From Halalkalibacterium halodurans (GTDB taxonomy: Bacteria > Bacillota > Bacilli > Bacillales > Bacillaceae_D): a DNA stretch of 14,081 bases. Of this stretch, positions 1 through 14,081 are shown piece after piece. How positions within the stretch are numbered: position 1 is the first letter of the stretch; every line of letters begins with the position of its first letter. Made by a program: the position numbers and the translations under genes. The stretch is taken from contig NZ_SNUY01000082.1 in the NCBI RefSeq assembly GCF_004376175.1, forward strand, positions 1 to 14,081, read 5' to 3'. A model generated the notes under the pieces. It was not told where the DNA came from and did not search any database. It saw only the letters and a program-made list of their open reading frames with translations.

Positions 1-135
1 TGTTCCCTTCGCCCTTGATTGACCTCTGAATAAACCATTGGTGTGTTTGTCAAGAGCGATAGCGTGGCATTTCCACCTAATAAATGGTAGGTAGTATGAA
101 CCGTGCTAGTTTTTCATAGAACTTTTGACACTACC
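1..135. repeat. Left arm of the inverted repeat flanking the window (partner 13956..14081). It continues beyond the left edge.
   Basis: Bases 11..90 match the reverse complement of 14002..14081 with 3 mismatches in 80 (positions 42, 65, 69). A divergent patch of about 20 nt with a 1-nt indel follows at 91..110. Bases 111..135 match again with 1 mismatch in 25. Similarity stops abruptly after ...TTTTGACACTACC at 135. Confidence 0.9.
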
Positions 136-255
136 CCATTCATTCCATATCGGTGATGGATCTCCTGCTTTTACTCGTAACTCACCGATTGATAATTCTT
201 CTTTTCCGAAATGAATTTAAAAAAGGGTTTACCGCCAAATATTAATAGACGAATG

Positions 256-290
256 TAAAAAGGAAGCCCCCTTCACTTAGGGAGCTTCCT
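256..290 (-). terminator. Rho-independent terminator downstream of the yugI-like gene
   Basis: AGGAAGCCCC (261-270) pairs with GGGAGCTTCCT (280-290) with one bulge. On the minus strand the stem is followed by TTTT. It lies directly after the stop codon at 301. Confidence 0.75.
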
Positions 291-300
291 TTGATCGTTA

Positions 301-717
301 CTATTTTTTGGCACGTTTGTTTAGGTCTGCTTGAATTTCGTTTGATTGCTTTAACCATTCTTTTAGTTTATCTTCTAATGTATTAAAGCCTTGTCCTTGG
401 CTTTGCCCTTTTTGTGGTTTACGTCCACCACCACCAGCTGGGCGTGGTTTTGGCGCGCGAGCTGGACGCTCAGGAGCCTCTTGTGTTGCACGGATGGAAA
501 GAGAAATTTTTCCACTTTCTTCGTCTACAGATAAAATTTTCACCTTCACTTCGTCACCTACGGAAAGAACATCATTGATGTCTTTCACAAAACCATGCGC
601 TACTTCAGAAATGTGAACCAATCCTTGCTTCTGATCGTCGATCGCAACGAATGCACCGAAGGGCTTGATTCCTGTGACTTTTCCTTCTACAATGCTGCCT
701 ACTTCATAATTTGACAT
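301..717 (-). CDS. yugI: S1 RNA-binding domain protein (YugI / general stress protein 13 family)
   Basis: The N-terminus YEVGSIVEGKVTGIKPFGAFVAI...GLVHISEVAHGFVKDINDVLSVGDEVKVKILSVDEESGKISLSIR is a canonical S1 OB-fold and closely resembles B. subtilis YugI. The tail is basic and low-complexity. RBS AGGAGA lies upstream of the ATG. Confidence 0.9.
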   Translation of the reverse strand: MSNYEVGSIVEGKVTGIKPFGAFVAIDDQKQGLVHISEVAHGFVKDINDVLSVGDEVKVKILSVDEESGKISLSIRATQEAPERPARAPKPRPAGGGGRKPQKGQSQGQGFNTLEDKLKEWLKQSNEIQADLNKRAKK

Positions 718-752
718 CCAAAAACATCTCCTAACTATTTATTAACTTGTTA

Positions 753-781
753 ATTTTAACACAGGTTGTCGTAATACGCAA
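753..781 (-). promoter_or_regulatory. Candidate sigma-A promoter for the yugI-like gene
   Basis: The minus strand reads TTGCGT-17 nt-TAAAAT, with a TGn extended -10 (TGT) immediately upstream of the -10 hexamer. Confidence 0.5.
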
Positions 782-815
782 AGCACATTTCGACTAGAAG
801 GAGATGGTGATGTTG

Positions 816-1985
816 TCATTTTTTCCTTTTGTTATGCCCTTTTAAACCATTATTCTTAGCATGGAGTTTACCATGGGACAGTACTCGCTCTTCAAAGGAA
901 AGATTTAGGCCTTTTTCGATTTTTTCCAGCTTATACATTTCCCGTTCACTCGTTAATGTGATCACGGTCCCTTCTTTACCCATTCGTCCAGTTCGTCCTG
1001 CGCGATGAACGTACGCTTCACTCGTCGTAGGTGGCTCCAGTTGGATCACATGGCTGACATCATCCACATCAAGACCGCGAGCTGCTACATCGGAAGCAAT
1101 GAGCACTTGCGCTTCACTTGTTTTCAATTGGTGCAATGCTCGCTCTCTTTCCTGTTTTGTTTGGTCAGATGACAAGGCGACTGCTTTAATTCCTTTGAAT
1201 TGTAACTTGGCTGTTGTTTCAGCTACATGTTCTAAACGGTTCACAAACACAATGCCGCGCTGAATGTTCTCATGGTGAATCAGCTTTCGTACCACATCCA
1301 TACGCTCTCGTTTTTCACAGCGAATGAACCAATGGTTTACTGCCTGCTGAACAGTGTTTCCTTGGGCTGACACCGTTTCTATAAAAGGGACATACGGAGC
1401 AACAAGCTCGGTAAACCGAGAAGCAAAGGTAGCAGAAACAAACAGATATTGCGCTTCATTCCCGATCCGTTTTGCCACATTCTCAAAGGCGTTCCATGCG
1501 CTCGTTTCTTCCATCATTCGGTCTGCCTCATCGACTACGATCATTTTGACATGGGTCACTTTTAGCTTTTTCATCTCCATTAATTCGAGAATACGTCCGG
1601 GTGTCCCAACCGCCACATGAGGTTTTTTCTTTTTTAATTTCTCGACCTGACGTTTTATATTTGCTCCACCGATGAGCGGGAGCACCGTGATTGAAGTGGT
1701 AGCGGTTAGTTGTTTTGCCACCTCGACGATTTGCATGGCGAGCTCCTGTGTCGGTGCCAATATAAGTGCTTGCGTCTGCTCTGGTAGTTCTTCCGTTTTC
1801 GTTAGCAACGGAAGCAAATACGCTAACGTTTTCCCTGTCCCTGTTTGTGAATGGACGATTAGATTTTGCCCATCCAATGCTTCCGGAATTACTTGTTGCT
1901 GAATTTCCGTAGGTTCTGTAATCCCTTGGTTTGTAAGAGCCTCTAGAAATGGTTCTCCAATTGGCCACTGCTGAAACTGATTCAT
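816..1985 (-). CDS. DEAD-box ATP-dependent RNA helicase (short, YfmL-like size)
   Basis: All core motifs are visible: Q-motif region, SQTGTGKT (motif I), PTQELA (Ia), TPGR, DEAD (II), SAT (III), HRAGRTGR (VI). RBS AGGAGA lies upstream. The start is only 20 nt after the thiM stop. Confidence 0.92.
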   Translation of the reverse strand: MNQFQQWPIGEPFLEALTNQGITEPTEIQQQVIPEALDGQNLIVHSQTGTGKTLAYLLPLLTKTEELPEQTQALILAPTQELAMQIVEVAKQLTATTSITVLPLIGGANIKRQVEKLKKKKPHVAVGTPGRILELMEMKKLKVTHVKMIVVDEADRMMEETSAWNAFENVAKRIGNEAQYLFVSATFASRFTELVAPYVPFIETVSAQGNTVQQAVNHWFIRCEKRERMDVVRKLIHHENIQRGIVFVNRLEHVAETTAKLQFKGIKAVALSSDQTKQERERALHQLKTSEAQVLIASDVAARGLDVDDVSHVIQLEPPTTSEAYVHRAGRTGRMGKEGTVITLTSEREMYKLEKIEKGLNLSFEERVLSHGKLHAKNNGLKGHNKRKK

Positions 1986-2005
1986 TTCGTCGTTTCTCCT
2001 ATCTT

Positions 2006-2791
2006 TTATGATCGTTCAAAGCGTCCATGCTGTTTTACATCTTCATCGGTCAAACGACCTAGCTGATTGAGAAAAGCCGTTTGGAACGATCCGTATCCTT
2101 TGGCTTTCGTCTCTTCATAAGCTTTTTCGGCTGCGACCCCATAAGCGACGAGCCCATAACCGATCACTTCCAAAAGGTCATCCGTTTTTAGGCTAGCAAA
2201 CGCCGCGACGATTGCCCCAGATAAGCAGCCTGTACCGACGACTTTCGTTAGCCATGGATGGCCATTGTAGCCACGAACCGTTCCCGTACCATCGGTAACA
2301 ACATCCACTTCGCCGGTTACAACAACTGCGCTATTCAGTACGTTTGCCGCATGCTTTGCCAATTCAACTGGGTCTGAATCAATGGAACCGTCGACCCCTT
2401 TGACCGTTCCTGCTTGATCGGATAGAGCTGCAATTTCGCCCCCGTTTCCCCGTACGATCGTAACGTCTACTTCCTTCAAGATTCGCTTACAACTCTCGGT
2501 ACGAAACGCTGTTGCCCCTGCCCCTACAGGATCTAACACGACAGGAGTACCAGCTTTATTAGCTGCTTTTCCTGCGATAATCATATTGTCAATGCTTTCT
2601 GCCGATAGTGTGCCTATGTTCAGAAGGAGTGCATTTGCTACCTTCGCCATGTCCGCTACTTCTTCTTTCGCATAAGCCATGACTGGAGACGCGCCAACGG
2701 CAAGTAGTCCGTTCGCTGTAAAATTTGTTACGACCACATTCGTCATACAATGAATGAGAGGATTACTTTTGCGTAGCATCTCAATGCTCAT
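2006..2791 (-). CDS. thiM: Hydroxyethylthiazole kinase
   Basis: 261 aa. NPLIHCMTNVVVTNFTANGLLAVGASPVMA, LLNIGTL and the C-terminal GTGCLSGAIVAAF are typical of the ThiM/ThiK family. A G-rich RBS lies upstream. Confidence 0.9.
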   Translation of the reverse strand: MSIEMLRKSNPLIHCMTNVVVTNFTANGLLAVGASPVMAYAKEEVADMAKVANALLLNIGTLSAESIDNMIIAGKAANKAGTPVVLDPVGAGATAFRTESCKRILKEVDVTIVRGNGGEIAALSDQAGTVKGVDGSIDSDPVELAKHAANVLNSAVVVTGEVDVVTDGTGTVRGYNGHPWLTKVVGTGCLSGAIVAAFASLKTDDLLEVIGYGLVAYGVAAEKAYEETKAKGYGSFQTAFLNQLGRLTDEDVKQHGRFERS

Positions 2792-2939
2792 TCAATCACC
2801 GATCCTTTCCTCACCCTTCATTTGTTGAAAATTTTACTCGTTTTTTCTTCGAATGACAAACGTCACTTTTTTCAGAAAGTTATGTATAGCTTTAGAACAA
2901 CTTGGGCATTCTATTGGTAGATGTATTCCCCCTTTTTTA

Positions 2940-2976
2940 ATCAACGTAGCATTAGCTGCGTTGATTTTTTTATTTT
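2940..2976 (+). terminator. Strong plus-strand rho-independent terminator with no plus-strand gene upstream
   Basis: An 11-bp stem, ATCAACGTAGC (2940-2950) with GCTGCGTTGAT (2955-2965), has loop ATTA and is followed by TTTTTTTATTTT. On the minus strand the stem is followed by TTAAAAAA, so it acts only on the plus strand. Confidence 0.7.
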
Positions 2977-2994
2977 AGTCACCAAACGTTTTCA

Positions 2995-3019
2995 TAAAAA
3001 AGCGCTTGGGACAAAGCAC
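2995..3019 (-). terminator. Weak candidate minus-strand terminator downstream of the nested hairpin
   Basis: The minus strand reads GTGCTT-TGTCCC-AAGCGC followed by TTTTTT. The stem is 6 bp and includes one G-U pair that forms only on the minus strand. Confidence 0.35.
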
Positions 3020-3048
3020 AGTACGGAGTTGATTGTTTCAAAAACTTG

Positions 3049-3118
3049 CTGCGGGCAAGGCTTCAGCTAGTCGGGGAAAATCGCCCCGATGGCTTTTCAG
3101 CCCTTGCTTTCCCCGCAG
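3049..3118. other. 70-nt nested, three-tier hairpin of unknown function
   Basis: CTGCGGG (3049-3055) pairs with CCCGCAG (3112-3118). CAAGG (3056-3060) pairs with CCTTG (3102-3106). TCGGGG (3071-3076) pairs with CCCCGA (3084-3089). The internal loop carries a direct repeat, GGCTTCAGC and GGCTTTTCAGC. Confidence 0.6.
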
Positions 3119-3320
3119 GCGTCTCGTGATTTTGACAATTTGCTTGGAAACGTCCGTCTAGTTATGCGTATGAAAGGGGGACGTATACTACCTGAAGGCT
3201 CATTTACGTTTTACTCGACTGCCGTAAGGGGTAACGAGAATACCAGAAATGAATGAGGATTTGCCTTCATGACTGTGAACTTACGAAAATCAAACAACAG
3301 ACGCCCCCATGAATCACCAG

Positions 3321-3366
3321 AAAAAAGGTTCGGATCCTTTTATTTTGATGGTCCGAACCTTTTTAT
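3321..3366. terminator. Bidirectional rho-independent terminator (ends alaT on the minus strand and can also stop plus-strand transcription)
   Basis: AAAAA-AGGTTCGGATC (3326-3336) pairs with GGTCCGAACCT (3350-3360), followed by TTTTTATT. The A-run before and T-run after make it functional in both orientations. Confidence 0.8.
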
Positions 3367-3392
3367 TACGTTGGGCTAGTTTTTCCCAGCCT

Positions 3393-4574
3393 CTATTGTT
3401 TGCATTTTTGCACAAAACGGCCAATTCGTTCGAGTGCCGTTTCTAAATGTTCCATAGATGTGGCATATGAACAACGGATGTGCCCTTCGCCACCTTCTCC
3501 GAACACATTCCCCGGAACAACCGCCACATGCTCCTCCATGAGAAGTCGTTCCGCAAATTCCTCAGAGGTAAGTCCGGTTTCTTTAACAGACGGAAACGCA
3601 TAGAAAGCTCCGCCAGGCATTGGACAAGTTAAGCCAATTTCGGTGAATGTTTTGACGACAAAATTGCGTCGTTGTCTGTAGGATTGAACCATGCGATGCA
3701 CATCGTCCATTCCTGTTTCTAATGCTTCCAACGCACCGTGCTGCGCCATTGTCGGTGCACACATAAGGCTGTATTGATGGATTTTTAGCATCGCGCTCAA
3801 AATATCATCTGGTGCACAGACATACCCAAGCCGCCAACCCGTCATCGCAAAAGCCTTCGAAAAACCAGAGATAAGAACGGTTCGTTCTCGCATTCCGTCC
3901 ATCGAAGCTAATGAAACATGGGTCCCATCATACGTAAGTTCTGCATAGATTTCATCCGAAAACACAATGAGGTCGTTTCCAGAAATCACCTTAGCCACTG
4001 CCTCTAACTCTTCTTTCCCCATAATCGACCCCGTCGGATTATTTGGAAAACAAAGAATAATCGCTTTTGTTCTTGGGGTAATCGCAGCCTCTATTTGCGC
4101 CGGTGTTACTTGGAAATCGGTATCGATATGCGTACCAACCGGAACCGGGACGCCTCCTGCCATCGTAACAAGTGGCGCATACGAAACAAAGCTTGGTTCG
4201 ACAACGATCACTTCATCCCCTTCGTCGATGATCGCGCGCATCCCGATGTCAATCGCTTCACTCGCACCAACCGTCACAAGAATTTCCGATTCAGGATCGT
4301 AACCTATGTGAAACCGCTCGTACAAATAACGGGAGATCGCTTCCCGAAGCTCAATGATTCCAGCATTTGCTGAATACGCAGTAAAACCACGCTCCATCGA
4401 AGAGATGCTCGCTTCCCTGACATTCCACGGCGTGACAAAATCAGGTTCACCAACACCAAGAGAAATAATATTTTCCATTTTTGAAGCGAGATCAAAAAAA
4501 CGGCGAATACCCGAAGGTTGAATCGATTGTACTCTCGTCGATAACCGTGTCCGTTGAGATGTAGAAGAAGTCAT
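3393..4574 (-). CDS. alaT: Class I/II pyridoxal-phosphate aminotransferase, alanine transaminase AlaT (YugH)-like
   Basis: 393 aa. It has IQPSGIRRFFDLA, LGVGEPDF, NPTG and the PLP-lysine motif SGFSKAFAMTGWRLGY. It sits immediately downstream of an Lrp/AsnC regulator with a 1-nt TAATG overlap, as in B. subtilis alaR-alaT (yugG-yugH). Confidence 0.85.
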   Translation of the reverse strand: MTSSTSQRTRLSTRVQSIQPSGIRRFFDLASKMENIISLGVGEPDFVTPWNVREASISSMERGFTAYSANAGIIELREAISRYLYERFHIGYDPESEILVTVGASEAIDIGMRAIIDEGDEVIVVEPSFVSYAPLVTMAGGVPVPVGTHIDTDFQVTPAQIEAAITPRTKAIILCFPNNPTGSIMGKEELEAVAKVISGNDLIVFSDEIYAELTYDGTHVSLASMDGMRERTVLISGFSKAFAMTGWRLGYVCAPDDILSAMLKIHQYSLMCAPTMAQHGALEALETGMDDVHRMVQSYRQRRNFVVKTFTEIGLTCPMPGGAFYAFPSVKETGLTSEEFAERLLMEEHVAVVPGNVFGEGGEGHIRCSYATSMEHLETALERIGRFVQKCKQ

Positions 4575-5068
4575 TATGGCGTCACCACAATTCGTTTATC
4601 GTCTTCGTCCTTTTTAAAAACAACCCCATCATGCTTATATTTTTTTAGTTGAAAGTGGGTCGTTGTTGAAAGAACCGTATCAATCGTTGATAGTTTTTCT
4701 GAGACAAACCGAGCGACCTCCGACATGGTCTTCCCTTCAATGACGACGGAGAGGTCATAAGCCCCCGACATTAAATAAAGCGCTTTTACTTCTGGGAAGC
4801 GGTAAATACGTTCAGCTACCTCATCAAAGCCAACCCCGCGCTGTGGCGTAACTTTAACATCAATCATGGCAGTTACCGTCTCGACTTCCTTCACTTTGCT
4901 CCAGTCAATCACCGCTGAGTAGGATAAAATCACATGGTCATTTTCAAGCTTTTTAATGATCGCTGTCACTTCTTCTTCAGTGGCATCAATCATTTTTGCT
5001 AAAGTCGGTATTGGCACACGGCCGTTTTCCTCAAGAATGTGCAGCACATCAAGCTCTTTTCTCTCCAC
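4574..5068 (-). CDS. alaR: Lrp/AsnC-family transcriptional regulator (AlaR/YugG-like)
   Basis: The HTH region is ELDVLHILEENGRVPIPTLAKMIDATEEEVTAIIKKLENDHVI, followed by a RAM/AsnC_trans_reg domain. The ORF stays open up to a GTG at 5170, but a GTG at 5068 is preceded by AAAGGGGAAG and gives the family-typical length of about 164 aa. Confidence 0.8.
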   Translation of the reverse strand: MERKELDVLHILEENGRVPIPTLAKMIDATEEEVTAIIKKLENDHVILSYSAVIDWSKVKEVETVTAMIDVKVTPQRGVGFDEVAERIYRFPEVKALYLMSGAYDLSVVIEGKTMSEVARFVSEKLSTIDTVLSTTTHFQLKKYKHDGVVFKKDEDDKRIVVTP

Positions 5069-5325
5069 GATGTGTCTTCCCCTTTCGTCAACAAAACCAT
5101 CAAATTCGTTTCGTATATCATACCACAATCCACTGTCCCTTTCCGTGAAAAATGTTACTTTTTTATTCACGAAAATGACCTGTTCTGTTCATTGCTTTTC
5201 CCAGTAAAAGATTGATACAATTCATGGTAATACTAAACGACGAGCCTCTTCATTTAATGGAATCGGTTCTTAAAGCATCGACTAGTCTAGCTGCGCAAAT
5301 AACATGAGAGAAAGGGTCGATTACG

Positions 5326-5766
5326 TTGGAAAAACCTACTGTTGATGATTACCTCAAAAAAGGAATTTACGGTCAGAAGGAAATTAATCCAGAAGAAAAG
5401 CGAACATTCCTTGGAACGTTTCGAGAACGGATCATTGTCGCCCTTACCCAATCACAAGTAAGAGAACAAGGAACGTACAAAGAAGTGGAGGAGCTTATGA
5501 GTCGTAATCGGGAGGCCAAGCTCTATTTAAACGGCTCCCTCGATTTTAAATATTTACGGGATTACATTCAAATAGCAGACCAACTCTCCATTGATTATCT
5601 TGTGGTCTCAAATCAAGAGAAAGAGACAGATATTGGTCTCGTTCTTGCCCATGATCATGCGATCGACAAAGAGGATATTTTTATCGAGGAACACACGGAG
5701 AAAGACGATTTGGAAAAAGATGAGAAGGGGCTGTCCGCATTCTTGAACCGTCTGTTTCGTCCATAG
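5326..5766 (+). CDS. DUF1694 (YueI-like) protein
   Basis: 146 aa with a TTG start preceded by AGAAAGGG. GIYGQKEINPEEKRTFLGTFRERIIVALT resembles the YueI/DUF1694 family as I recall it. Confidence 0.7.
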   Translation: MEKPTVDDYLKKGIYGQKEINPEEKRTFLGTFRERIIVALTQSQVREQGTYKEVEELMSRNREAKLYLNGSLDFKYLRDYIQIADQLSIDYLVVSNQEKETDIGLVLAHDHAIDKEDIFIEEHTEKDDLEKDEKGLSAFLNRLFRP

Positions 5767-5805
5767 CCATCGTTTCACCTCAGTCTTGTATTTCCATCGA
5801 AAATG

Positions 5806-5836
5806 TAAAAAGCGAGCTGGATCACTCGCTTTTTTT
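5806..5836. terminator. Bidirectional terminator between the convergent DUF1694 gene and luxS
   Basis: AAAAA-AGCGAG (5811-5816) pairs with CTCGCT (5825-5830), followed by TTTTTTT. Confidence 0.75.
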
Positions 5837-6311
5837 ACGATTCAAATACTTTTGTTAACGAATCTTTCTCATGAGACAACCAGTAGGTCATGAGTTTTTT
5901 TGCGCCGTCTAAATCGTGGAGGTTTGCTTGCCCACACTGCTTCTCGTTAGCAGCCGGTACTTCCTCTAGCTCAAGAGAATACTTCATCGTTTGTTCGAGA
6001 ACATCGATGATTTCCTCCACCGTTGGCTTACCGCTCATAATTAAATAAAAGCCTGTTTGGCATCCCATCGGGGAAAGATCAATGACATCAAAGTGATCAT
6101 ATGCTTCAGCAAATTTGCGAATATTCAAGGCAAGTAAATGCTCTAGTGTATGAATCACATCAGGCTTCATCGCCTGTTTATTTGGTTGAAAAAAACGAAT
6201 GTCAAACTTGTTCACCTCTCCGTTAGTCCCGACTTTATGTGTACCACACGGACGGACGAATGGCGCTTTTACAATCGTATGGTCAAGCTCAAAGCTTTCA
6301 ACTGTTGGCAT
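5835..6311 (-). CDS. luxS: S-ribosylhomocysteine lyase
   Basis: [20 protein letters not shown]..., the metal-binding HTLEHL motif and the conserved C-terminal half are present. RBS GGAGGAGGAAG lies upstream. Confidence 0.95.
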
Positions 6312-6370
6312 ACTACTTCCTCCTCCTCTTTCCTTTTGTCCTTTCAGTATAAAGGAACAATCGTGCTCTG

Positions 6371-6811
6371 TTAAGATTCATCTTCTTTTTTGATTGAAGA
6401 TGGCTCATAATGGTTAAGATGTTTAATCAAGATCTCCTGCCTCTCGGCGAATGCATACAGATCTTCATGAAACGATTCGGGTTGAAAGCGACTGAACTTC
6501 AAACGAAACCCTTTTTTTAAGAAAAACACGACCACATGACTACGAGTTGTTTTGATGAAATACGCTTCTTTTATTTGTTCGGCTCTTATCTCACGAGATA
6601 ACAACTGAGCAGAAGAGAGGGAAATCGTAAATGAAATCACATCCCCTTTGATCTGAAACCGATAACGGATAAAAGAGAGCAATACAAACAGCAAAAACGG
6701 AAGATACAGGAGGAACGTCCACCTTCCTTCCAGAATGATACTATTTAAAAGTGTCAGCAAAGCGAGAGCTAGCCAAATCATCTTTCCTTCCGATGCAGTA
6801 TATACGTTCAT
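6371..6811 (-). CDS. Hypothetical small membrane protein (two N-terminal TM helices plus a soluble domain of about 90 aa; the layout resembles bacterial PH-domain proteins)
   Basis: Hydrophobic segments [18 protein letters not shown] and [16 protein letters not shown] are followed by a charged domain. I recognise no motif with confidence. Confidence 0.55.
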
Positions 6812-6966
6812 TGATCAATCGTCCCTTTCCATATGCTAGCCTACCGTCCTATAGGAAGCGTGCCTGTGGACAAAAGCATCTACACCCTTGGCAATCAACT
6901 ACCATTATACACAAGTTTAACGGCTTGTTGGACCAAAAACTTGTGGAAAGGAAGGGAGAAGCACAC

Positions 6967-7785
6967 ATGGGCAAAAACACATTTTTCTATCAATTCTTTA
7001 AACAATTGAAAACCGATCCAATCCCGGACTGGTCAGCAACCCTTGCGTACTATTTTATGCTATCCATCTTTCCACTCATCATTTTTATCCTAGCGCTCAT
7101 TCCATATTTTTCAATTGATCAACAGTACCTCTACCAAATCATTGTCGATTATTTGCCTGAGGATTTGGCAGACGTCTTTACCTCAGTGATTTTAGATGTT
7201 GTAAGCAGACCTCAAGGTGGCCTAGTATCATTCGGTGCTCTTGCCGCCATATGGACGGCTTCTAACGGCATGAATGCCCTCATTCGAGCCGTAAATCGTT
7301 GCTATGCGGTCGAAGAAACGCGAAGTCTTTATAATTTGCGGTTTCTTTCCATCATGTTAACAATCGGCATGATGCTCGTTTTTGTTACAACGCTGTTACT
7401 CCCTGTTTTCGGACATTTAATCATCCAATTGCTAGATTGGTTATTTATTGTTCCTGAAGGGACCGCTTCGGTGCTAAATGCCTTGCGCTGGATCGTTGGT
7501 ATTTGTTTAATGACCATTATCCTCATTGTTATCTATCTCCTCGCACCGAACACGTCTTTAAAATTAAAAGATGTCGTAACAGGTGCGGTTGTCGCAACAA
7601 TTGGCTGGCAGCTTATTTCATACGGCTTCTCTGCTTATGTAAGCAACTTCGGGAATTTCTCTGCCACGTATGGAAGTCTAGGAGGGGTGATCGTGCTCAT
7701 GCTTTGGTTTTTTCTCAGCAGCCTTATGCTCATCATTGGTGGTGAGGTCAACGCGGCCACCTATCGATTGAAGCAGCAACAGTAA
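6967..7785 (+). CDS. YihY/virulence factor BrkB family membrane protein
   Basis: FFKQLKTDPIPDWSATLAYYFMLSIFPLIIFILALIPYF and the multi-TM body are typical of the YihY/BrkB family. The real start is the ATG at 6967, preceded by AAGGAAGGGAGAAG. The 6751 start in the ORF track is an upstream read-through. Confidence 0.85.
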   Translation: MGKNTFFYQFFKQLKTDPIPDWSATLAYYFMLSIFPLIIFILALIPYFSIDQQYLYQIIVDYLPEDLADVFTSVILDVVSRPQGGLVSFGALAAIWTASNGMNALIRAVNRCYAVEETRSLYNLRFLSIMLTIGMMLVFVTTLLLPVFGHLIIQLLDWLFIVPEGTASVLNALRWIVGICLMTIILIVIYLLAPNTSLKLKDVVTGAVVATIGWQLISYGFSAYVSNFGNFSATYGSLGGVIVLMLWFFLSSLMLIIGGEVNAATYRLKQQQ

Positions 7786-7961
7786 AGATAGAAAACTTGA
7801 AGTTTTAATAATCGAAACAATCGATTTCTTACATTTTGATTCTTTCTAGTGGATAAACGTCTAAAAGTGCAAAAATTCTCCGCTTTCTGTGTATAAACTT
7901 AATAAAACTGGCAATGATGGTACCAGCACTCGTAAAACATGCGAGATTAGGAGGAGTAAAC

Positions 7962-8234
7962 ATGAATAAAACAGAACTTATCCATCAAGTGGCAGAACGT
8001 ACACAGATGTCAAAAAAAGATGCTGGTGAAGTTGTTAACACTGTATTTGATGTCATTGCTGAATCCCTTGCCCAAGGTGACTCTGTACAACTGATCGGGT
8101 TCGGAAACTTTGAAGTGCGTGAACGTGCCGCACGAAAAGGTAGAAACCCACAGACTGGAGAGGAAATTGACATTGCCGCAACAAAAACACCAGCGTTCAA
8201 AGCGGGAAAGCAGCTAAAAGATGCAGTGAAGTAA
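7962..8234 (+). CDS. hup: HU family DNA-binding protein
   Basis: 90 aa: [99 protein letters not shown] lies 7 nt upstream of the ATG at 7962. Confidence 0.95.
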
Positions 8235-8236
8235 CA

Positions 8237-8270
8237 GAAAAAACGCCCCTTTATAGGAGGCGTTTTTTCT
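8237..8270. terminator. Terminator after the HU gene (A-run before and T-run after, so possibly shared with the convergent RDD gene)
   Basis: AAAAAACGCCCC-TTTATA-GGAGGCGTTTTTT. Confidence 0.8.
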
Positions 8271-8315
8271 TGGTCTACGAGTAGGATCAATGAAATAAGT
8301 TCTGTCTTCTTTAAC

Positions 8316-8744
8316 CTATTCAGCCTCAGGTGTTTGCCCTGGTGCGTCATACGTAACATAGGTTCCAGCAATTAAATCATGCAAGCTTCTCTTGTCTTCG
8401 CGCAATCCAACCATAAAGGCGCTGACAATGACGGCAATACCAAAAGTAATAAGATAAACAAAACCTGCCACAATCGTTCGCAGCAACATTGTTCCGATCC
8501 CTACATTTTCTCCGTCCATTTTTACAATTCGTACACCACAAATCTTTTTTCCAATCGTGTAGCCTAGCCATAAAACAGGCAGTAATAATCCATAGACTAG
8601 GTTGACCCCGCCTTGAAAAATAGAAGTCATCGGCTCTTCCAAACCTAAAATAAGCGTAATAATCGCGAGAGGAATACCTATAATGATGCCATCTAGAAGA
8701 CCAGCGCCTAGGCGAATCCAAAATCCTGCTGGGTTACTAACCAC
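8316..8744 (-). CDS. RDD family membrane protein
   Basis: NPAGFWIRLGAGLLDGIIIG, three TM segments and the C-terminal RSLHDLIAGTYV are typical of RDD/YckC-like proteins. Confidence 0.8.
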   Translation of the reverse strand: MVSNPAGFWIRLGAGLLDGIIIGIPLAIITLILGLEEPMTSIFQGGVNLVYGLLLPVLWLGYTIGKKICGVRIVKMDGENVGIGTMLLRTIVAGFVYLITFGIAVIVSAFMVGLREDKRSLHDLIAGTYVTYDAPGQTPEAE

Positions 8745-8900
8745 TTTTGATCATCCTTTCTTGGTTTTACGTTCATTCCCATTTTAGTGTTTAATCATGC
8801 AATCGACAATCTTTTTTATTGAAAGCACCTTTTCTACTACTTAATTATCGATTGAAGACGAAAAGAGTTTTCACAGACTCATGCCTTTTGACTCTTATTA

Positions 8901-8929
8901 TGTCAACATATTTATGTAGACAGTTGACA
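8901..8929. promoter_or_regulatory. BirA (biotin repressor) operator
   Basis: A perfect inverted repeat, TGTCAAC-N15-GTTGACA, matches the Firmicutes BirA-box layout TGTnAAC-N15-GTTnACA. It overlaps the -35 of the bioY promoter. Confidence 0.8.
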
Positions 8930-8952
8930 AAGTCACCTCATTTGCTTACGAT
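8924..8952 (+). promoter_or_regulatory. Sigma-A promoter of bioY
   Basis: TTGACA-17 nt-TACGAT lies 35 nt upstream of the bioY ATG. The -35 hexamer sits inside the right half-site of the BirA box. Confidence 0.6.
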
Positions 8953-8986
8953 TATGTTAACTAATTCACTTCGGAGGTAAACATTC

Positions 8987-9580
8987 ATGGCAACAAAATC
9001 GTTTCGCACCATAGATCTTGTGTTAGTACCAATGTTTGCAGCCTTGATGGGCATCGGTGCTAACGTTACATCTTTTCTTGTCATTGGCGGCGTACCCATC
9101 ACCCTACAAACGCTGTTTTCCATCCTCGCAGGCGCACTTCTAGGAAGTCGACTTGGCGCGTTTGCTATGTCCCTCTATTTACTTGTCGGGCTCGTTGGCT
9201 TTCCAGTCTTTGCCCAATTCAAGGGAGGCTTGAGCACATTTGTTAGCCCAACATTCGGGTTCCTAATTTCCTTCATTCTCGTTGCGTATGTGACAGGGAA
9301 AATCATCGAAAAGAGTGAAAGTAAATCTTTCTTCACATTCGTTATTGCATGCTTTATCGGACTTATTATTAACTATGTCGTTGGGACGAATTATATGTAT
9401 TTTGCTTATATCACCATTGCAGAAGCCCCTGAAGGCTTCACCTATTCAATGGCCTGGGCTTGGATGATCGCGCCTTTCATAAAGGATGTCATCGTCACAA
9501 TCGCTGCTGCGGTAGTTGCCCACCGTATTTACGGCACTGTCCGGAAACACCGACCGAATCATTTACAGCAAGCAAGTTAA
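8987..9580 (+). CDS. bioY: Biotin transporter BioY (ECF-type S component)
   Basis: 197 aa and multi-TM. VPITLQTLFSILAGALLG and GLVGFPVFA...GGLSTFVSPTFGFLISFI are typical BioY motifs. RBS GGAGG and a BirA box lie upstream. Confidence 0.92.
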   Translation: MATKSFRTIDLVLVPMFAALMGIGANVTSFLVIGGVPITLQTLFSILAGALLGSRLGAFAMSLYLLVGLVGFPVFAQFKGGLSTFVSPTFGFLISFILVAYVTGKIIEKSESKSFFTFVIACFIGLIINYVVGTNYMYFAYITIAEAPEGFTYSMAWAWMIAPFIKDVIVTIAAAVVAHRIYGTVRKHRPNHLQQAS

Positions 9581-9595
9581 TCCTTTATGCAAGAA

Positions 9596-9635
9596 AAAGG
9601 TCTGCTCTCTAATGGAGAAGCGACCTTTTATTTTT
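9596..9635. terminator. Bidirectional terminator after bioY
   Basis: AAAGGTCTGCTCTCT pairs with AGAGAAGCGACCTTT (two bulges), followed by TTTTATTTTT, with an A-run upstream. Confidence 0.6.
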
Positions 9636-9904
9636 CATTGAAAGATGGTCCTGATTGGGTTAGAGGGGTGTAACATAAAATCGACTTCTGCCTTTTCTTC
9701 ACCGTTAACGATAATGGTCAGTTTATGCATTCCAGGATAGAGAGTTCTTGCTGATAAATGGTTAAACGTATGTTTACGGACGAATTGTATCGTACCTTTA
9801 GAACAAGTTTTCTCAGATAAGTAAAAGACTTTGCGATTTTGTCGTCCATTCGCTTTCACGAAATAAATCCCGTATTCGATCCTTACCTTAGGAGGTAATG
9901 TTTT
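9635..9904 (-). pseudogene. C-terminal remnant (about 85 codons) of a DNA alkylation repair protein (YhaZ/COG4335-like)
   Basis: The open frame reads ...VRIEYGIYFVKANGRQNRKVFYLSEKTCSKGTIQFVRKHTFNHLSARTLYPGMHKLTIIVNGEEKAEVDFML. This matches my recollection of the C-terminal module of DNA alkylation repair proteins of about 370 aa (motif ...F.KANG...KVFKL...H.F...TR.YY.G.H.L.I.ING...F.L). The frame opens just after a TGA at 9905-9907, directly beside the upstream gene's terminator. There is no convincing RBS and the only start is a GTG. Confidence 0.55.
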
Positions 9905-9910
9905 TCAAGC

Positions 9911-9940
9911 AAAAAAAGAACGAGGACTCGCTCCTCGTTC
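9911..9940 (-). terminator. Rho-independent terminator of the yuiF-like transporter gene
   Basis: A 9-bp stem, GAACGAGGA (9918-9926) with TCCTCGTTC (9932-9940), has loop CTCGC and is followed on the minus strand by TTTTTTT. Confidence 0.85.
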
Positions 9941-9951
9941 GATCATTTTAT

Positions 9952-11274
9952 TTACAGCATCATCGCCGCAATCCAACCAAAAAGTAAGAGTGGAATATTA
10001 AAGTGAAGAAAGGTCGGCACACATGTATCCCAAATGTGATTATGTTGACCATCGGCGTTCAATCCTGCCGTCGGCCCAAGCGTACTGTCTGAAGCGGGAG
10101 CTCCGGCATCCCCTAACGCTCCAGCAGTTCCAATTAGGACGATAATCGCCATTGGACTAAAACCAACAGCCAACCCTAACGGAACGAACAATGTAGCGAT
10201 AATCGGAATCGTCGAAAAGGACGAGCCGATCCCCATCGTAATAAACAAGCCAACGACGAGCATGAGCATAGCCGCCAGCCCTCGTTGCTGCCCAATGACA
10301 GCGGCCACTTGTTCAACAAGTAGCTCCACATGACCCGTTTCACGGATGACGGCGGCAAAGCCTGCAGCTGTGAGCATGACAAAGCCGATGAACGCCATCA
10401 TCTTCATCCCTTCTGTCACCGCTTGATCCGCTTCCCTACGATTAAAAGATCCTGACAAAAATAAAATCATCAACCCGGCCAAACCAGCAATAATCATCGA
10501 TTCAGAATAATATTGTACGACCAATGTGACAACAATGGCCACTACGGCACAGGCGATGGTCCAGTTCGAATAGCTGATCTCTTCCTGCTTAAATTCTGCA
10601 CTAATTTCACGATTTTCATAGCTTCTTGGTCCCCGGTATGTTACAAATACGGCAAAAAGCAACCCTACGACTAAGCCTATCGTTGGCAGTGCCATCGCCG
10701 TCGGAATCTCTGCCATCGTCACCTCAAGACCATTATCGGCAATGTTCGACTGAATAATCCCGTGGAAGATTTGCCCGAACCCATATGGCAAGAAAATGTA
10801 AGGCGCTGTTAAGCCAAACGTTAAAATCGTCGCGATTAACCGACGATCCACTTCTAATTCATTTAAAATTTTTAAAATCGGTGGAATTAAAATTGGGATA
10901 AACGCAATGTGAATGGGAATTACATTTTGAGAAAAACAAGAAATGATGAGAATAACGAAAAATAATAATGCCTTTGATAACGTTTTTCTTCGATCTTCCC
11001 CTTCTTTCCCTACTAGCCGAAGCACGACATTCACCATGACATCCGGCAACCCCGTCTTTGAAATCGCCACCGCAAAGGCACCGAGCAACGCATAGCTCAA
11101 TGCAACAGTCGCATTCCCTCCAAGCCCTTCACTGAACACTTCGATCGTCTCTAAAAACCCGAGACCGCCTACTACTCCACCGACGATAGCCCCAATCGAA
11201 AGGGCAAGGACAACGTGAACACGAAGTAAGCTTAAAACTAACATAACAATGACCGCAAGCAAGACGGCATTCAT
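9952..11274 (-). CDS. yuiF: Na+/H+ antiporter family (NhaC-superfamily) transporter, YuiF-like putative amino-acid transporter
   Basis: Polytopic, about 440 aa. MNAVLLAVIVMLVLSLLRVHVVLALSIGAIVGG...GLGGNATVALSYALLGAFAVAISKTGLPD resembles B. subtilis YuiF. As I recall, yuiF also neighbours a bioY paralog (yuiG) in B. subtilis. The ATG at 11274 sits 9 nt after GGAGAGG. The upstream GTG and ATG codons overlap that RBS. Confidence 0.8.
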   Translation of the reverse strand: MNAVLLAVIVMLVLSLLRVHVVLALSIGAIVGGVVGGLGFLETIEVFSEGLGGNATVALSYALLGAFAVAISKTGLPDVMVNVVLRLVGKEGEDRRKTLSKALLFFVILIISCFSQNVIPIHIAFIPILIPPILKILNELEVDRRLIATILTFGLTAPYIFLPYGFGQIFHGIIQSNIADNGLEVTMAEIPTAMALPTIGLVVGLLFAVFVTYRGPRSYENREISAEFKQEEISYSNWTIACAVVAIVVTLVVQYYSESMIIAGLAGLMILFLSGSFNRREADQAVTEGMKMMAFIGFVMLTAAGFAAVIRETGHVELLVEQVAAVIGQQRGLAAMLMLVVGLFITMGIGSSFSTIPIIATLFVPLGLAVGFSPMAIIVLIGTAGALGDAGAPASDSTLGPTAGLNADGQHNHIWDTCVPTFLHFNIPLLLFGWIAAMML

Positions 11275-11450
11275 AAAAAACATCCTCTCCACGACAACAA
11301 ATACTTTAGTTTATTAAATCACTAATATACTAAAATATGAAACTCCGGTTGTCAAGGTAACCGATGTCAGGTAAAAAACACCATCGGACATGCTGCTTTT
11401 CGAGCTTCTCTTATCCTTTAATCATTTAGTGAAGTTAACTTTCCTAGAAT

Positions 11451-11489
11451 GCAAAACGAGTCGCACCTTAGCAACTAAAGGTGCGACTC
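11451..11489 (-). terminator. Terminator of the sigma/PadR-like/SEDS-like operon
   Basis: An 11-bp stem, GAGTCGCACCT (11458-11468) with AGGTGCGACTC (11479-11489), is followed on the minus strand by GTTTTGCATTC. The stop codon of the SEDS-like gene (11475-11477) lies in the loop. Confidence 0.65.
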
Positions 11490-12770
11490 CTTCAAACCAC
11501 GATCGATCACAACATATTGATGGCGATAAACATTTAAAATGATCCCTATTAATCCACTGTAATACATTTGCTGTCCTATACCGAAGCTCAGTATTGGTAC
11601 GGAATGTTCGATAATGGGGAGCCAGCCAATGTTCATAAATACACCCATTATGAGCGGCACTACTATGAGTGTCGTTGCCCCGATCACAAGAACGCTTCCT
11701 TTCAGGTCAGGGGTTCGGCGGCTTGTGCGAACAAAGCGAACGATAGCATAGACAAACAGAGCTAAAATGCTCAATGCAGGAACCCAACCAATTTCATGTA
11801 TCAAAAACAAAAGCACTAAATCCGTATTGTAGCGAAGCTCTACCATCGTTTGTGCAAATTGTGAGCTTCCTCTCCCGAAAAATACCGAATGCTGTAGCAA
11901 ATCTTGATTGATGAACGGTATATAACCAAAGCTAGAAGAATATTGCTCGGGTCGAAGCCAACCGAGAACCCGGTCAATCTGATGCTGCGGCGCTATCGAG
12001 ATGTAAAACGTTACCGCGATTACGAGGAGACAGACATTCACCAAAAGAAAGGTTATTTTTTCCCTCTGTTTACTGCTTTTCAAAAAATACGTAAAAAGAC
12101 TTAATGAAAAATACGCAAATGCAGCAATATAATGTGTTAAAAACGTTAAAAACATGACAGGAAGCCATACGAGTAGGATTGTCAACGAAAGAGGCTTTCG
12201 TTTTGCAATCAATAAGTAGCCAATCCAGCCGAGTAAGAGAAGAAAGTTGACGACCATCATATCCATCGTTCCACCTAGTGGAGAAAAATACACTTTCCCG
12301 TTAACTGTTAGCGAAAATATCGGCATTAACGTGAGTAGCAATATCCCCATTCCCATTGCCAGCCATATTTTCCACCATGAAAGCAGTTTTTCATAAGGAA
12401 AGAGCATGCATCCAACGAGAACAATACTAGAAGCAAATAAAGATAGCCATTGGTATGTCATGATTCCTCCGATTTCGTTCTTTACGAGAAACACCGGTAG
12501 CATACTAATGGCTAGCAGCAGCCCAGCAACGATCAAAAGTGGCCAATCCATCACAGGACGGTGCAAGCGGTTCATTTTCAATCCTAAATCGTCAGGATCC
12601 CCCATGTCTTGGACCGCTTTTGCACTCGCCTCTTCCTCCGTATAACCTGCTTTTTTATAGGCTTTCGAGCTCTCATTCAGATGATGACGAAGCTCTTTTT
12701 CCACTAGTTCTCGCCCTGCTTTTGATTTCATTTGACCTAAAACCCTTGCAAGAAAGTCATCCATTTTCAA
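11475..12770 (-). CDS. Divergent SEDS (FtsW/RodA/SpoVE)-like polytopic membrane protein with an N-terminal DUF1700/permease-prefix-like cytoplasmic helical domain
   Basis: The N-terminal 70 aa (MDDFLARVLGQMKSKAGRELVEKELRHHLNESSKAYKKAGYTEEEASAKAVQDMGDPDDLG) have the DUF1700/permease-prefix pattern seen in partners of PadR regulators. About 10 TM segments follow. The C-terminal third aligns by eye with SEDS: LGWLRPE...FGYIP...FFGRG...YNTDLVLLFLIHEIGW...NIGWLPIIEHSVPILSFGIGQQ corresponds to SEDS ...HTDFIF..GEELG...G.LP.TG.PLPF.SYGGS. A TTG start at 12770 lies 7 nt after GGGGTG. An ATG follows two codons later. Confidence 0.7.
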   Translation of the reverse strand: MKMDDFLARVLGQMKSKAGRELVEKELRHHLNESSKAYKKAGYTEEEASAKAVQDMGDPDDLGLKMNRLHRPVMDWPLLIVAGLLLAISMLPVFLVKNEIGGIMTYQWLSLFASSIVLVGCMLFPYEKLLSWWKIWLAMGMGILLLTLMPIFSLTVNGKVYFSPLGGTMDMMVVNFLLLLGWIGYLLIAKRKPLSLTILLVWLPVMFLTFLTHYIAAFAYFSLSLFTYFLKSSKQREKITFLLVNVCLLVIAVTFYISIAPQHQIDRVLGWLRPEQYSSSFGYIPFINQDLLQHSVFFGRGSSQFAQTMVELRYNTDLVLLFLIHEIGWVPALSILALFVYAIVRFVRTSRRTPDLKGSVLVIGATTLIVVPLIMGVFMNIGWLPIIEHSVPILSFGIGQQMYYSGLIGIILNVYRHQYVVIDRGLKESHL

Positions 12771-13185
12771 AGCCCAACACCCCCTTAAACGTTAGCTTCG
12801 CCTCTTGTTCTACTGTTCTTGTTAGTACATCCCGCCCCTTGGATGTTGTTTGATAAATCTTTACTTCTTCTCCATCCCTCATCACCCACCGACTTTTCAC
12901 AAAACATTCCATTTCTAGCCTGTGTAAGTATGGATAAAGAACTCCCTCCTGACCATAAAAGGTATGACACCCTTTTTGCTCTAGGTTCGTGAGCAATTGA
13001 TATCCCGTCTTTTCTTCATGCTGCAAAGAGGCCAGGATCTCGAGCAAGTCATTTGGTCGCACGAGCGTTTGCAGCATTAGCTTTTTACGGACAGCGTCCT
13101 GTCCACGTTCTGTGAAAGACCAGTTTTGAAACATCGATGTATCGAGTGACTGTTTCATTTTTTTCCGAAGCTCATCGTCCATCAT
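12757..13185 (-). CDS. PadR-like winged-helix protein with an N-terminal extension of about 45 aa (sits in the anti-sigma position)
   Basis: LLEILASLQHEEKTGYQLLTNLEQKG...GVLYPYLHRLEMECFVKSRWVMRDGEEVKIYQTTSKGRDVL follows the PadR wHTH pattern (GY.I...L, G.LYP.L.RLE..G.I, K.Y.LT..G). Its start overlaps the sigma stop (ATGA) and its stop overlaps the downstream start. Confidence 0.7.
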   Translation of the reverse strand: MMDDELRKKMKQSLDTSMFQNWSFTERGQDAVRKKLMLQTLVRPNDLLEILASLQHEEKTGYQLLTNLEQKGCHTFYGQEGVLYPYLHRLEMECFVKSRWVMRDGEEVKIYQTTSKGRDVLTRTVEQEAKLTFKGVLGFENG

Positions 13186-13733
13186 GTTTCGTCCTCCTTT
13201 TCGAGCAAATTTTTCAAAAGCAACCGTCCTTTTCTTAACCGTGTCTTAACTGTATTTTCGTTAAGTCCTGTAAAGCTTGCCACTTCCTTAACCGACAGTT
13301 CCTCGTAATAGTAGAAATAAATGACTTCTCGGTACGAAAGGGGCAACGAAAAAACAGCAGCTGCTAATCGCTCTTCATCACTTTTCAACAAAACTTCGTA
13401 TTCTGGTGTTTGTTCTGTTGTTTCGATTTCCTCCGCCACTTCCGACGGATAAACATGCTTTGCGTGCCAGCTTTTCAAAAAGTCCTTACCTCGATTAATG
13501 GCGATTCGGTACAGCCACGCTTTGGCAGAGGATCGCGTTTGATATGTATGGTAAGACTGAAACGCTCTAACAAAAACCTCTTGCGTTAAGTCTTCCGCTA
13601 TTTGTTTATCTTTAACGTAAGAATAAACAACACGGAGAATCGCTGTGCCGTACTCTTCCATCCAAGCAATTAGTTGATGTTCCCGCATTTCTGCCGTTTC
13701 GATTTCTCCTATTTTCCCTGGTAACGACTCCAC
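13182..13733 (-). CDS. ECF-type RNA polymerase sigma-70 family factor
   Basis: Region 2 is DLTQEVFVRAFQSYHTYQTRSSAKAWLYRIAINRGKDFLK. Region 4 is REVIYFYYYEELSVKEVASFTGLNENTVKTRLRKGRLLLK. The GTG start lies 7 nt after AGGAGG. Confidence 0.9.
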   Translation of the reverse strand: MESLPGKIGEIETAEMREHQLIAWMEEYGTAILRVVYSYVKDKQIAEDLTQEVFVRAFQSYHTYQTRSSAKAWLYRIAINRGKDFLKSWHAKHVYPSEVAEEIETTEQTPEYEVLLKSDEERLAAAVFSLPLSYREVIYFYYYEELSVKEVASFTGLNENTVKTRLRKGRLLLKNLLEKEDET

Positions 13734-13753
13734 ATCTTCACCTCCTTACTTTA

Positions 13754-13782
13754 TAAACGATGCACACACGAAAATGGTTTTC
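13754..13782 (-). promoter_or_regulatory. Candidate ECF-type autoregulatory promoter
   Basis: The minus strand reads GAAAAC-17 nt-CGTTTA (an AAC-type -35 and a CGT-type -10), directly upstream of the sigma gene's RBS. Confidence 0.35.
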
Positions 13783-13955
13783 TTTTTTCGCTTTATCTTT
13801 ATTGAAAGATCTCGATCACCAAAAATGTACCAAATGAACATCGTTTACATAATGTATAAAGACTTTTGCGGAAATCACAAACATCCAAACGGCCACATTT
13901 GGAACAAAAATGATTGACAACGTATAGGATAATTTAGCATCTTCTCTATCGTCCA

Positions 13956-14081
13956 GGTAGTGTCAAAACTTCTATGAAAACCTTATTTGGATCTAACACT
14001 ACTACCATTTATTAGGTGGAAAGGCCGCGCTATCGCTCTTGACAAACACGCCAATGGTTTATTCAGAGGTCAATCAAGGGC
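13956..14081. repeat. Right arm of the inverted repeat flanking the window (partner 11..135). It continues beyond the right edge.
   Basis: It starts abruptly at GGTAGTGTCAAAACTTCTATGAAAA and runs to the last base of the window. Its reverse complement matches 11..135, as detailed for the left arm. Confidence 0.9.

Follow-up and report, generated by a model that had tools for sequence, protein, structure and literature searches.

The two inverted arms that close the window, which is an entire 14,081-nt whole-genome shotgun contig of Halalkalibacterium halodurans, are best explained as the right ends of two copies of a multicopy insertion sequence (IS) that were inserted independently, each by simple insertion, with the contig stopping within them. 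We place the probability of this reading at about 90%. The inverted repeat as such matters little and is what is usually seen when a short-read contig runs out in a multicopy IS. What is noteworthy is the strict insertion rule that the copies appear to follow, in a long IS6-like group without reported experimental data.

Bases 1–135 and 13956–14081 are inverted copies of each other, with 112 identical positions in the 127 columns of a global alignment. A repeat search splits them into two pairs, 11–90 with 14002–14081 (80 nt, 96% identity) and 108–135 with 13956–13983 (28 nt, 93%), which are separated by a divergent patch of 17 or 18 nt that contains a 1-nt length difference. The longest exact inverted match between the arms is 31 nt, compared with a mean of 14.8 nt and a maximum of 24 nt in 30 shuffles. 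The inverted repeat that had been noted at the ends of the window is thereby borne out. The coordinates and mismatch counts in the preliminary description are also essentially right, except that it starts the left arm at base 11 instead of base 1. Bases 1–10 also match the full-length element of Halalkalibacter oceani, and the left arm is therefore IS-derived from its first base; it seems to begin at base 11 because the right arm ends after 126 nt. The inner boundaries of the arms are exact, as the alignment of IS-free relatives is confined to 136–13955. With the hypervariable patch included, the arms differ by ∼12% (88% identity) and hence represent two IS variants rather than identical copies.

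The identity of the repeat follows from a search in which a 23-mer of the arm was scanned against one genome per species. It produced a single match, in H. oceani P106. In that genome a non-coding stretch of 247 nt directly follows a 478-codon transposase ORF; the arm is its final part and ends at an abrupt boundary (...TTTTGAGACTACC|). The arms thus belong to a transposase-bearing repeat, which was one of the options that had been offered for them, and the suspicion that the true repeat is longer than 125 bp proves correct, the element being ∼1.82 kb long.

Bases 1–135 (plus strand) correspond to the terminal 135 nt of the right end of copy A. They are non-coding and 96.3% identical over 135 nt to the region 3′ of the transposase ORF in H. 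oceani (L011), and the transposase gene of this copy is placed beyond the left window edge on the plus strand. Bases 13956–14081 (minus strand) correspond to the terminal, likewise non-coding, 126 nt of the right end of copy B, with its terminal repeat (IRR) at 13956–13969 and its transposase gene beyond the right edge on the minus strand; their identity to the right end of the H. oceani IS is 89%. Each arm is laid out, from the inside outwards, as a 14-nt IRR with an outward TTGACA, a variable patch of ∼20 nt and the conserved 3′ half of a stem-loop. The IRR of copy A occupies bases 122–135 of the plus strand (CTTTTGACACTACC, reverse complement GGTAGTGTCAAAAG), matches the left terminal repeat (IRL, CGTATTGTCAAAAC) and shows both a GG tip and TGT..CAAA motifs, as is typical of IS6-family ends. 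The hypervariable patch is located at 91–107 (plus strand) in copy A and at 13984–14001 in copy B. Its sequence is not the same in the two arms and changes with every IS variant compared, whereas the blocks on either side are conserved. The 3′ strands of a three-helix stem-loop, predicted with RNAalifold from seven family members, are found at 11–57 (plus strand) and 14025–14071 and are the best-conserved part of both arms; the 5′ strands fall beyond the window.

The complete element measures 1824 bp in H. oceani and 1828–1845 bp elsewhere. Its ends are 14 nt long, with CGTATTGTCAAAAC as IRL and GGTAGTGTCAAAAG (reverse complement) as IRR, and IRL variants are seen in Geobacillus (GGTATTGTCAAAAG) and L. 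brevis (GGTACTGTCAAACG). As in the IS6/IS26 family, the terminal inverted repeats are short and show a GG tip and cTGTt/caaa motifs; the IRL tip of the Bacillaceae copies is CG rather than GG. The non-coding ends are long, with 140 nt on the left and 247 nt on the right, the latter containing the structured element. The H. oceani transposase matches the Pfam family PF13610 (DDE_Tnp_IS240) with 38 bits against a cutoff of 27, and the same domain is found in 120 of 120 transposase homologues among the matches listed. The NCBIfam IS6 model NF033587 covers positions 7–201 of 202 and scores 77.7 bits, below its cutoff of 125, in agreement with the view of Harmer & Hall (PMC6807381) that the long group is distant, with ∼26% identity to Tnp26. 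The protein has 477–478 residues and contains an E-x6-K motif (IIERLNRTFK). Two CxxC...CxxC motifs are located at approximately residues 96–170 and are preceded by an extension of ∼95 amino acids with a hydrophobic N-terminus. Among the matches listed, homologues of ∼477 amino acids with 71–99% identity are widespread in Bacillaceae, usually on contigs of 1.6–1.9 kb, which is the signature of a collapsed multicopy IS. Closed genomes with the family include those of Ureibacillus sp. FSL W8-0352, Sutcliffiella cohnii, Anaerobacillus isosaccharinicus, Amphibacillus xylanus and Heyndrickxia sporothermodurans. A blastn search of PLSDB with the arm returned no plasmid-borne match.

An 8-bp direct target duplication, which is an IS6/IS26 trait, is found at both window sites, in a Ureibacillus genome and on plasmids. 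All four copies in the Ureibacillus genome are full-length elements with 8-bp duplications, and so are the elements on plasmids of Geobacillus, L. brevis and C. estertheticum (CATAATTA, CTAGTGGC and TTTAATTC). The H. oceani copy (L011 5750–5760 and 7583–7595) and four metagenomic copies (L043, L044, L045 and L049) are without matching 8-bp duplications. For the metagenomic copies the most likely explanation is that the assemblies join the flanks of different copies, and metagenome contigs were left out of the duplication statistics. For the H. oceani copy, an IS-mediated rearrangement or recombination between copies may be the reason. On three contigs (L030 1790–1850; L039 and L040 ∼200–250) an IRR is joined to an IRL through an 8-bp spacer (CATTGAAT, TTTTCAAG and GATAAATT). 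These could be tandem copies that share one 8-bp duplication, or circular forms, and they recall the arrays and translocatable units of IS26. The IS6/IS26 family is characterized by transposition solely via cointegrates, whether replicative or targeted conservative.

The junctions at both sites of the window argue for two separate events. The inner junctions read GAATGAATGG|GGTAGTG and CTCTATCGTCCA|GGTAGTG, and the left one is identical in GCA_036219485.1 and SRR23886953, which are two independent assemblies of one strain. The inner 8-bp duplication of copy A is located at 136–143 (plus strand, CCATTCAT, which equals ATGAATGG on the other strand) and that of copy B at 13948–13955 (plus strand, ATCGTCCA). 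The outer junctions and duplications were read in other H. halodurans strains or samples that have the same insertion sites, and not in the strain of the window. For copy A the outer junction in sample ERR14657484 is ...TTTTGACAATACG|ATGAATGG|ATAGGGGGGAGATAGATG, leading into BH3346, and the empty site in L001 contains a single ATGAATGG. For copy B the outer junction in SRR23886953 is ...TTTTGACAATACG|ATCGTCCA|CAAGGGGGTGAAAACATG, leading into rmlA, and the empty site in L019 and L022 contains a single ATCGTCCA. The insertion points of both copies would thus be 23 nt ahead of a start codon, that of BH3346 (left of the window) for copy A and that of rmlA (BH3363; right of the window) for copy B. 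Taking the inner junctions of the window together with the outer junctions of the other strains, each copy is flanked by a direct 8-bp duplication of its own and adjoins its ancestral outer neighbour; we therefore interpret the two as independent simple insertions.

The 13.8 kb between the inner duplications (144–13947) form a core-chromosome block. Judged by its ORFs and their Pfam matches, it encodes an S1/GSP13 protein, a DEAD-box helicase, ThiM, an aminotransferase, an Lrp/AsnC protein, a DUF1694 protein, LuxS, a BrkB-like protein and HU, in addition to RDD, BioY, Na+/H+ antiporter, FtsW/RodA-like and PadR proteins and an ECF sigma factor (TES48612.1). IS-free strains such as GCA_034259345.1 are colinear with window 136–13955 at 99.4–99.5% identity, with no internal rearrangement. 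In these strains the S1/GSP13 gene is directly followed by BH3346, a sugar-phosphate isomerase gene, and rmlA directly precedes the ECF sigma-factor gene. The preliminary description had noted housekeeping genes in the block and regarded it as no typical accessory island, and this agrees with its orthology to BH3347–BH3362 and with the colinearity. In the assembly of the window the BH3346 homologue is TES53749.1, and a partial rmlA (WP_243855030.1) may belong to the same assembly.

That the repeat runs off both edges of the window reflects an assembly break inside a multicopy IS: it does so because a short-read assembler stopped within the multicopy repeat. At least 12 further annotated transposase copies or fragments are present in the same assembly, comprising at least 4 + 3 C-terminal fragments at the ends of contigs, TES53930.1 and TES49005.1, as well as at least three copies of a second subfamily (84% identical). 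With these other copies present and the contig broken in the repeat, a special pairing of the two arms is not supported.

Two inverted copies of a 1.8-kb repeat at a distance of 13.8 kb could also have allowed homologous recombination between them to invert the block, either in the strain or in part of its population. Such an inversion leaves all four IS–flank junctions unchanged, so that short-read contigs cannot tell the two arrangements apart. We nevertheless consider it improbable. It would turn HU, luxS and further genes around with respect to their flanks, the arm variants are 88% identical, which lowers the efficiency of recombination, and all relatives examined are colinear with the block in the ancestral order.

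A second copy and an inverted block could in principle arise in one step through intramolecular replicative transposition, a course of events that had been suggested for this locus. IS6-family elements transpose replicatively, and their intramolecular events give inverted copies together with an inverted segment (PMC7986276). This pathway would, however, split the original duplication and place the new 8-bp duplication, inverted, on different copies. Here each copy has a matching direct 8-bp duplication and an ancestral outer neighbour, as read from the junctions in other strains, and both sites independently obey the normal target rule described below, which makes the one-step inversion very unlikely. 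The probability is slightly lower again for a composite transposon in which the two IS copies and the block together are able to move 13.8 kb of housekeeping genes. The block does have a copy of one and the same IS family on either side. In IS6-family pseudo-compound transposons, however, the IS copies occur 'invariably as flanking direct repeats', owing to the cointegrate mechanism (PMC7986276), while the copies described here are inverted, each has its own duplication and the block is found at its ancestral chromosomal position with its ancestral neighbours. Finally, the arms might represent a duplicated regulatory RNA or a duplicated operon leader (a riboswitch, T-box or rRNA-operon leader, the riboswitch and operon-leader options having been raised earlier), or else an assembly artefact, an idea that can be set aside almost completely. 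The arms are non-coding and hold half of a conserved, covarying stem-loop, but they are without an Rfam match at gathering score or E ≤ 10, no tRNA genes are present, every full sequence seen joins them directly to a transposase gene, their junctions recur in independent assemblies, and they are absent at both sites in close relatives. An rRNA-operon or promoter leader was dropped once comparison with relatives identified the arms as insertions.

Several other features of the locus were observed. In CP040441.1 (L022 8300–12500 and L003 1–2400) the block is interrupted by an LXG-toxin cassette (YwqH-like, DUF5344 and LXG) after the FtsW-like gene, and DDE_Tnp_1 transposases are located on both sides of the RDD gene beside HU. 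The block is therefore not invariant across strains. The 180-bp intergenic region between the S1 gene and BH3346 (window 144–300) is a hotspot for IS elements: ISL3-family elements are found in it at different positions in CP040441.1 (L003 10480–11870, duplication ATTAATAT) and GCA_001274915.2 (L026 1–70). The ISL3 element beside the S1 gene in CP040441.1 was considered as the source of the arm and rejected, being a different IS at a different site with its own duplication. In GCA_036219485.1 and SRR23886953 another sequence, AAGCTCGGCGAATGCCGAGAGTC, abuts at a contig break 26 nt upstream of the start of the sigma-factor gene (L009 1–25 and L010 1–15; window ∼13757–13782), and it probably represents the terminus of a further repeated element. 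Within the block, a gap of 600 nt without a convincing ORF is present upstream of thiM (hydroxyethylthiazole kinase) at 2792–3392. It contains terminator-like hairpins at 2939–2966, 3002–3019 and 3045–3059, and a search of 2792–3392 for a TPP riboswitch or another Rfam family gave no match even at E ≤ 10.

Returning to the two independently inserted IS copies, their target sites are closely similar. On the IRL side, the site of copy A reads IRL|ATGAATGG ATA GGGGGG AGATAG ATG and that of copy B reads IRL|ATCGTCCA CAA GGGGG TGAAAAC ATG. We extended this comparison to 23 independent IRL flanks (window 136–143 and 13948–13955, L027 1–50, L029 1–55, L031–L038 and L041–L053). An ATG at exactly +24 together with a G-rich run at +11 to +18 is present in 17 of them, versus 0.19% of background positions (binomial P ∼ 5e-42), and most of the remaining flanks are off by one or two bases. 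An ATG at +24 puts the IRL tip 23 nt upstream of the start codon, a distance made up of the 8-bp duplication and ∼15 nt, with the Shine–Dalgarno sequence in between. The orientation relative to the target gene is the same in 23 of 23 cases.

The same arrangement recurs in more and less related elements. Eight further insertions with transposases that are at least 90% identical all have their IRL 22–23 nt upstream of an ATG, and in seven the distance is exactly 23 nt. Four of these eight come from the closed Ureibacillus genome, where the 8-bp duplication is perfect in every case, and the other four from other samples. Most of nine metagenomic contigs agree, as do relatives with 45–67% identity on plasmids of Geobacillus, Pediococcus, L. 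brevis and C. estertheticum. The position of the Shine–Dalgarno sequence varies from +8 to +13. Because the position of the ATG is more constant, the aligned flanks suggest that the whole initiation region is recognized, and not GGAGG alone.

A wider proposal is that the long IS6-like group as a whole is site- and orientation-specific and targets translation-initiation regions, landing between the promoter and the Shine–Dalgarno sequence with its transposase gene divergent from the target gene, and that this holds from Bacillaceae to Lactobacillaceae and Clostridium over 45–99% identity. We give this generalization even odds. To recognize the start region, the transposase would most likely read the DNA directly, with its additional N-terminal and zinc-finger domains, at the IRL side of the transpososome. 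The geometry of the window is explained by the same arrangement: the copies are inverted with their IRR ends facing inwards because the IRL always adjoins the start of the target gene, and BH3346 and rmlA point away from the block. Targeting of start codons, Shine–Dalgarno sequences or ribosome-binding sites by an IS is not mentioned in PMC7986276, in PMC6807381 or in the results of a full-text search, and the notes in ISfinder might record such targeting.

If the rule is true and new, it means that a DDE transposase can read translation-initiation regions at the level of DNA. The rule would account for the presence of IS copies in 5′ leaders without loss of coding sequence, and it would predict that the genes downstream of the copies have their expression systematically rewired. 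Orientation-dependent IS pairs, which are potential substrates for inversion, would be predictable from gene orientation alone. Under the target rule, every copy meets the transcription of the displaced host promoter at its IRR and parts the host gene from its promoter at its IRL, and two features of the element bear on this situation.

The first is the right-end stem-loop. RNAalifold predicts three helices with 35 pairs, 11 of which show compensatory double changes; these changes occur in the Geobacillus or L. plantarum relatives. Helix 1 (TTGACAAAC/GTTTGTCAA) is similar to the core of the terminal repeat. The complete stem-loop is present in H. oceani (L011 5830–5975, minus strand) and in L030 (∼1600–1745), L050 and L054. 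Approximately 110 nt of the right-end non-coding region are 100% identical between two subfamilies that are ∼77% identical elsewhere. The stem-loop would insulate the element by blocking incoming transcription.

The second is an outward, antisense σ70-like motif (TTTATA or TTGATT, a spacer of 17–18 nt and TATAAT or AATAAT) that overlaps the first codons of the transposase gene at IS coordinates ∼150–190 (for example L031 713–741, minus strand). In seven of the eight relatives scanned, one of them at 45% identity, its −10 element ends 152–162 nt from the IRL tip; in the eighth, the L. brevis copy, the promoter-like motif was not found. Judged by its sequence, the motif could drive the host gene downstream of the IRL. 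Such an antisense promoter would restrain translation of the transposase and re-express the target gene. The stem-loop and the outward promoter-like motif may together be adaptations to landing between a promoter and its gene. A hybrid promoter at the IRL junction was also considered and discarded, as the outward TTGACA cannot pair with a −10 element there, that position being occupied by the Shine–Dalgarno sequence.

The IS6 group with long transposases is small and corresponds to clade i of Varani et al. (2021; PMC7986276) and to clade VIII of Harmer & Hall (2019; PMC6807381). Its members are ISHahy6 (1713 bp, 453 amino acids), ISHco2 (1727 bp, 453 amino acids) and ISTet2 (1761 bp, 454 amino acids), and they have a zinc finger and a further N-terminal extension of ∼100 amino acids; 8-bp duplications are recorded for ISHahy6 and ISTet2 (PMC7986276, PMC6807381). 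Both experimental data and target specificity are unreported for this group in the two papers. The element described here resembles it in its length of ∼1.7–1.8 kb, in a transposase of ∼450–480 amino acids with an IS240/IS6-type DDE core behind CxxC zinc fingers and an extension of ∼100 amino acids, in its 8-bp duplications and in terminal repeats of ∼14 nt with TGT and CAAA motifs. It differs in the CG tip of the IRL in the Bacillaceae copies, in its long non-coding ends (140 and 247 nt) and in an NCBIfam IS6 score below the cutoff. The described members of clade i/VIII come from Clostridia, whereas the present group comes from Bacillaceae, Lactobacillaceae and Clostridium. On its architecture, duplication length and type of ends, compared with the published descriptions, we file the element beside ISHahy6, ISHco2 and ISTet2 as a putative new member of the clade i/VIII kind.

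As in the IS26 and IS257 systems, a chromosomal segment is bracketed by two IS6-type copies, and an outward TTGACA is present at both IS ends, as it is as a −35 element in the ends of IS26 and IS257. In contrast to IS26/IS257 pseudo-compound transposons and to IS26-mediated inversions, the copies are inverted, each comes with a separate direct 8-bp duplication, and the segment is core genome in its ancestral context, with no sign that the unit moves or has been inverted. The closest parallel in targeting is with known elements that target a host recombination site, which likewise insert at a constant distance from, and with a constant orientation to, a short functional host motif that occurs many times per genome. 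Those elements have a transposase of another family, and the target here consists of the Shine–Dalgarno sequence and the ATG of ordinary genes.
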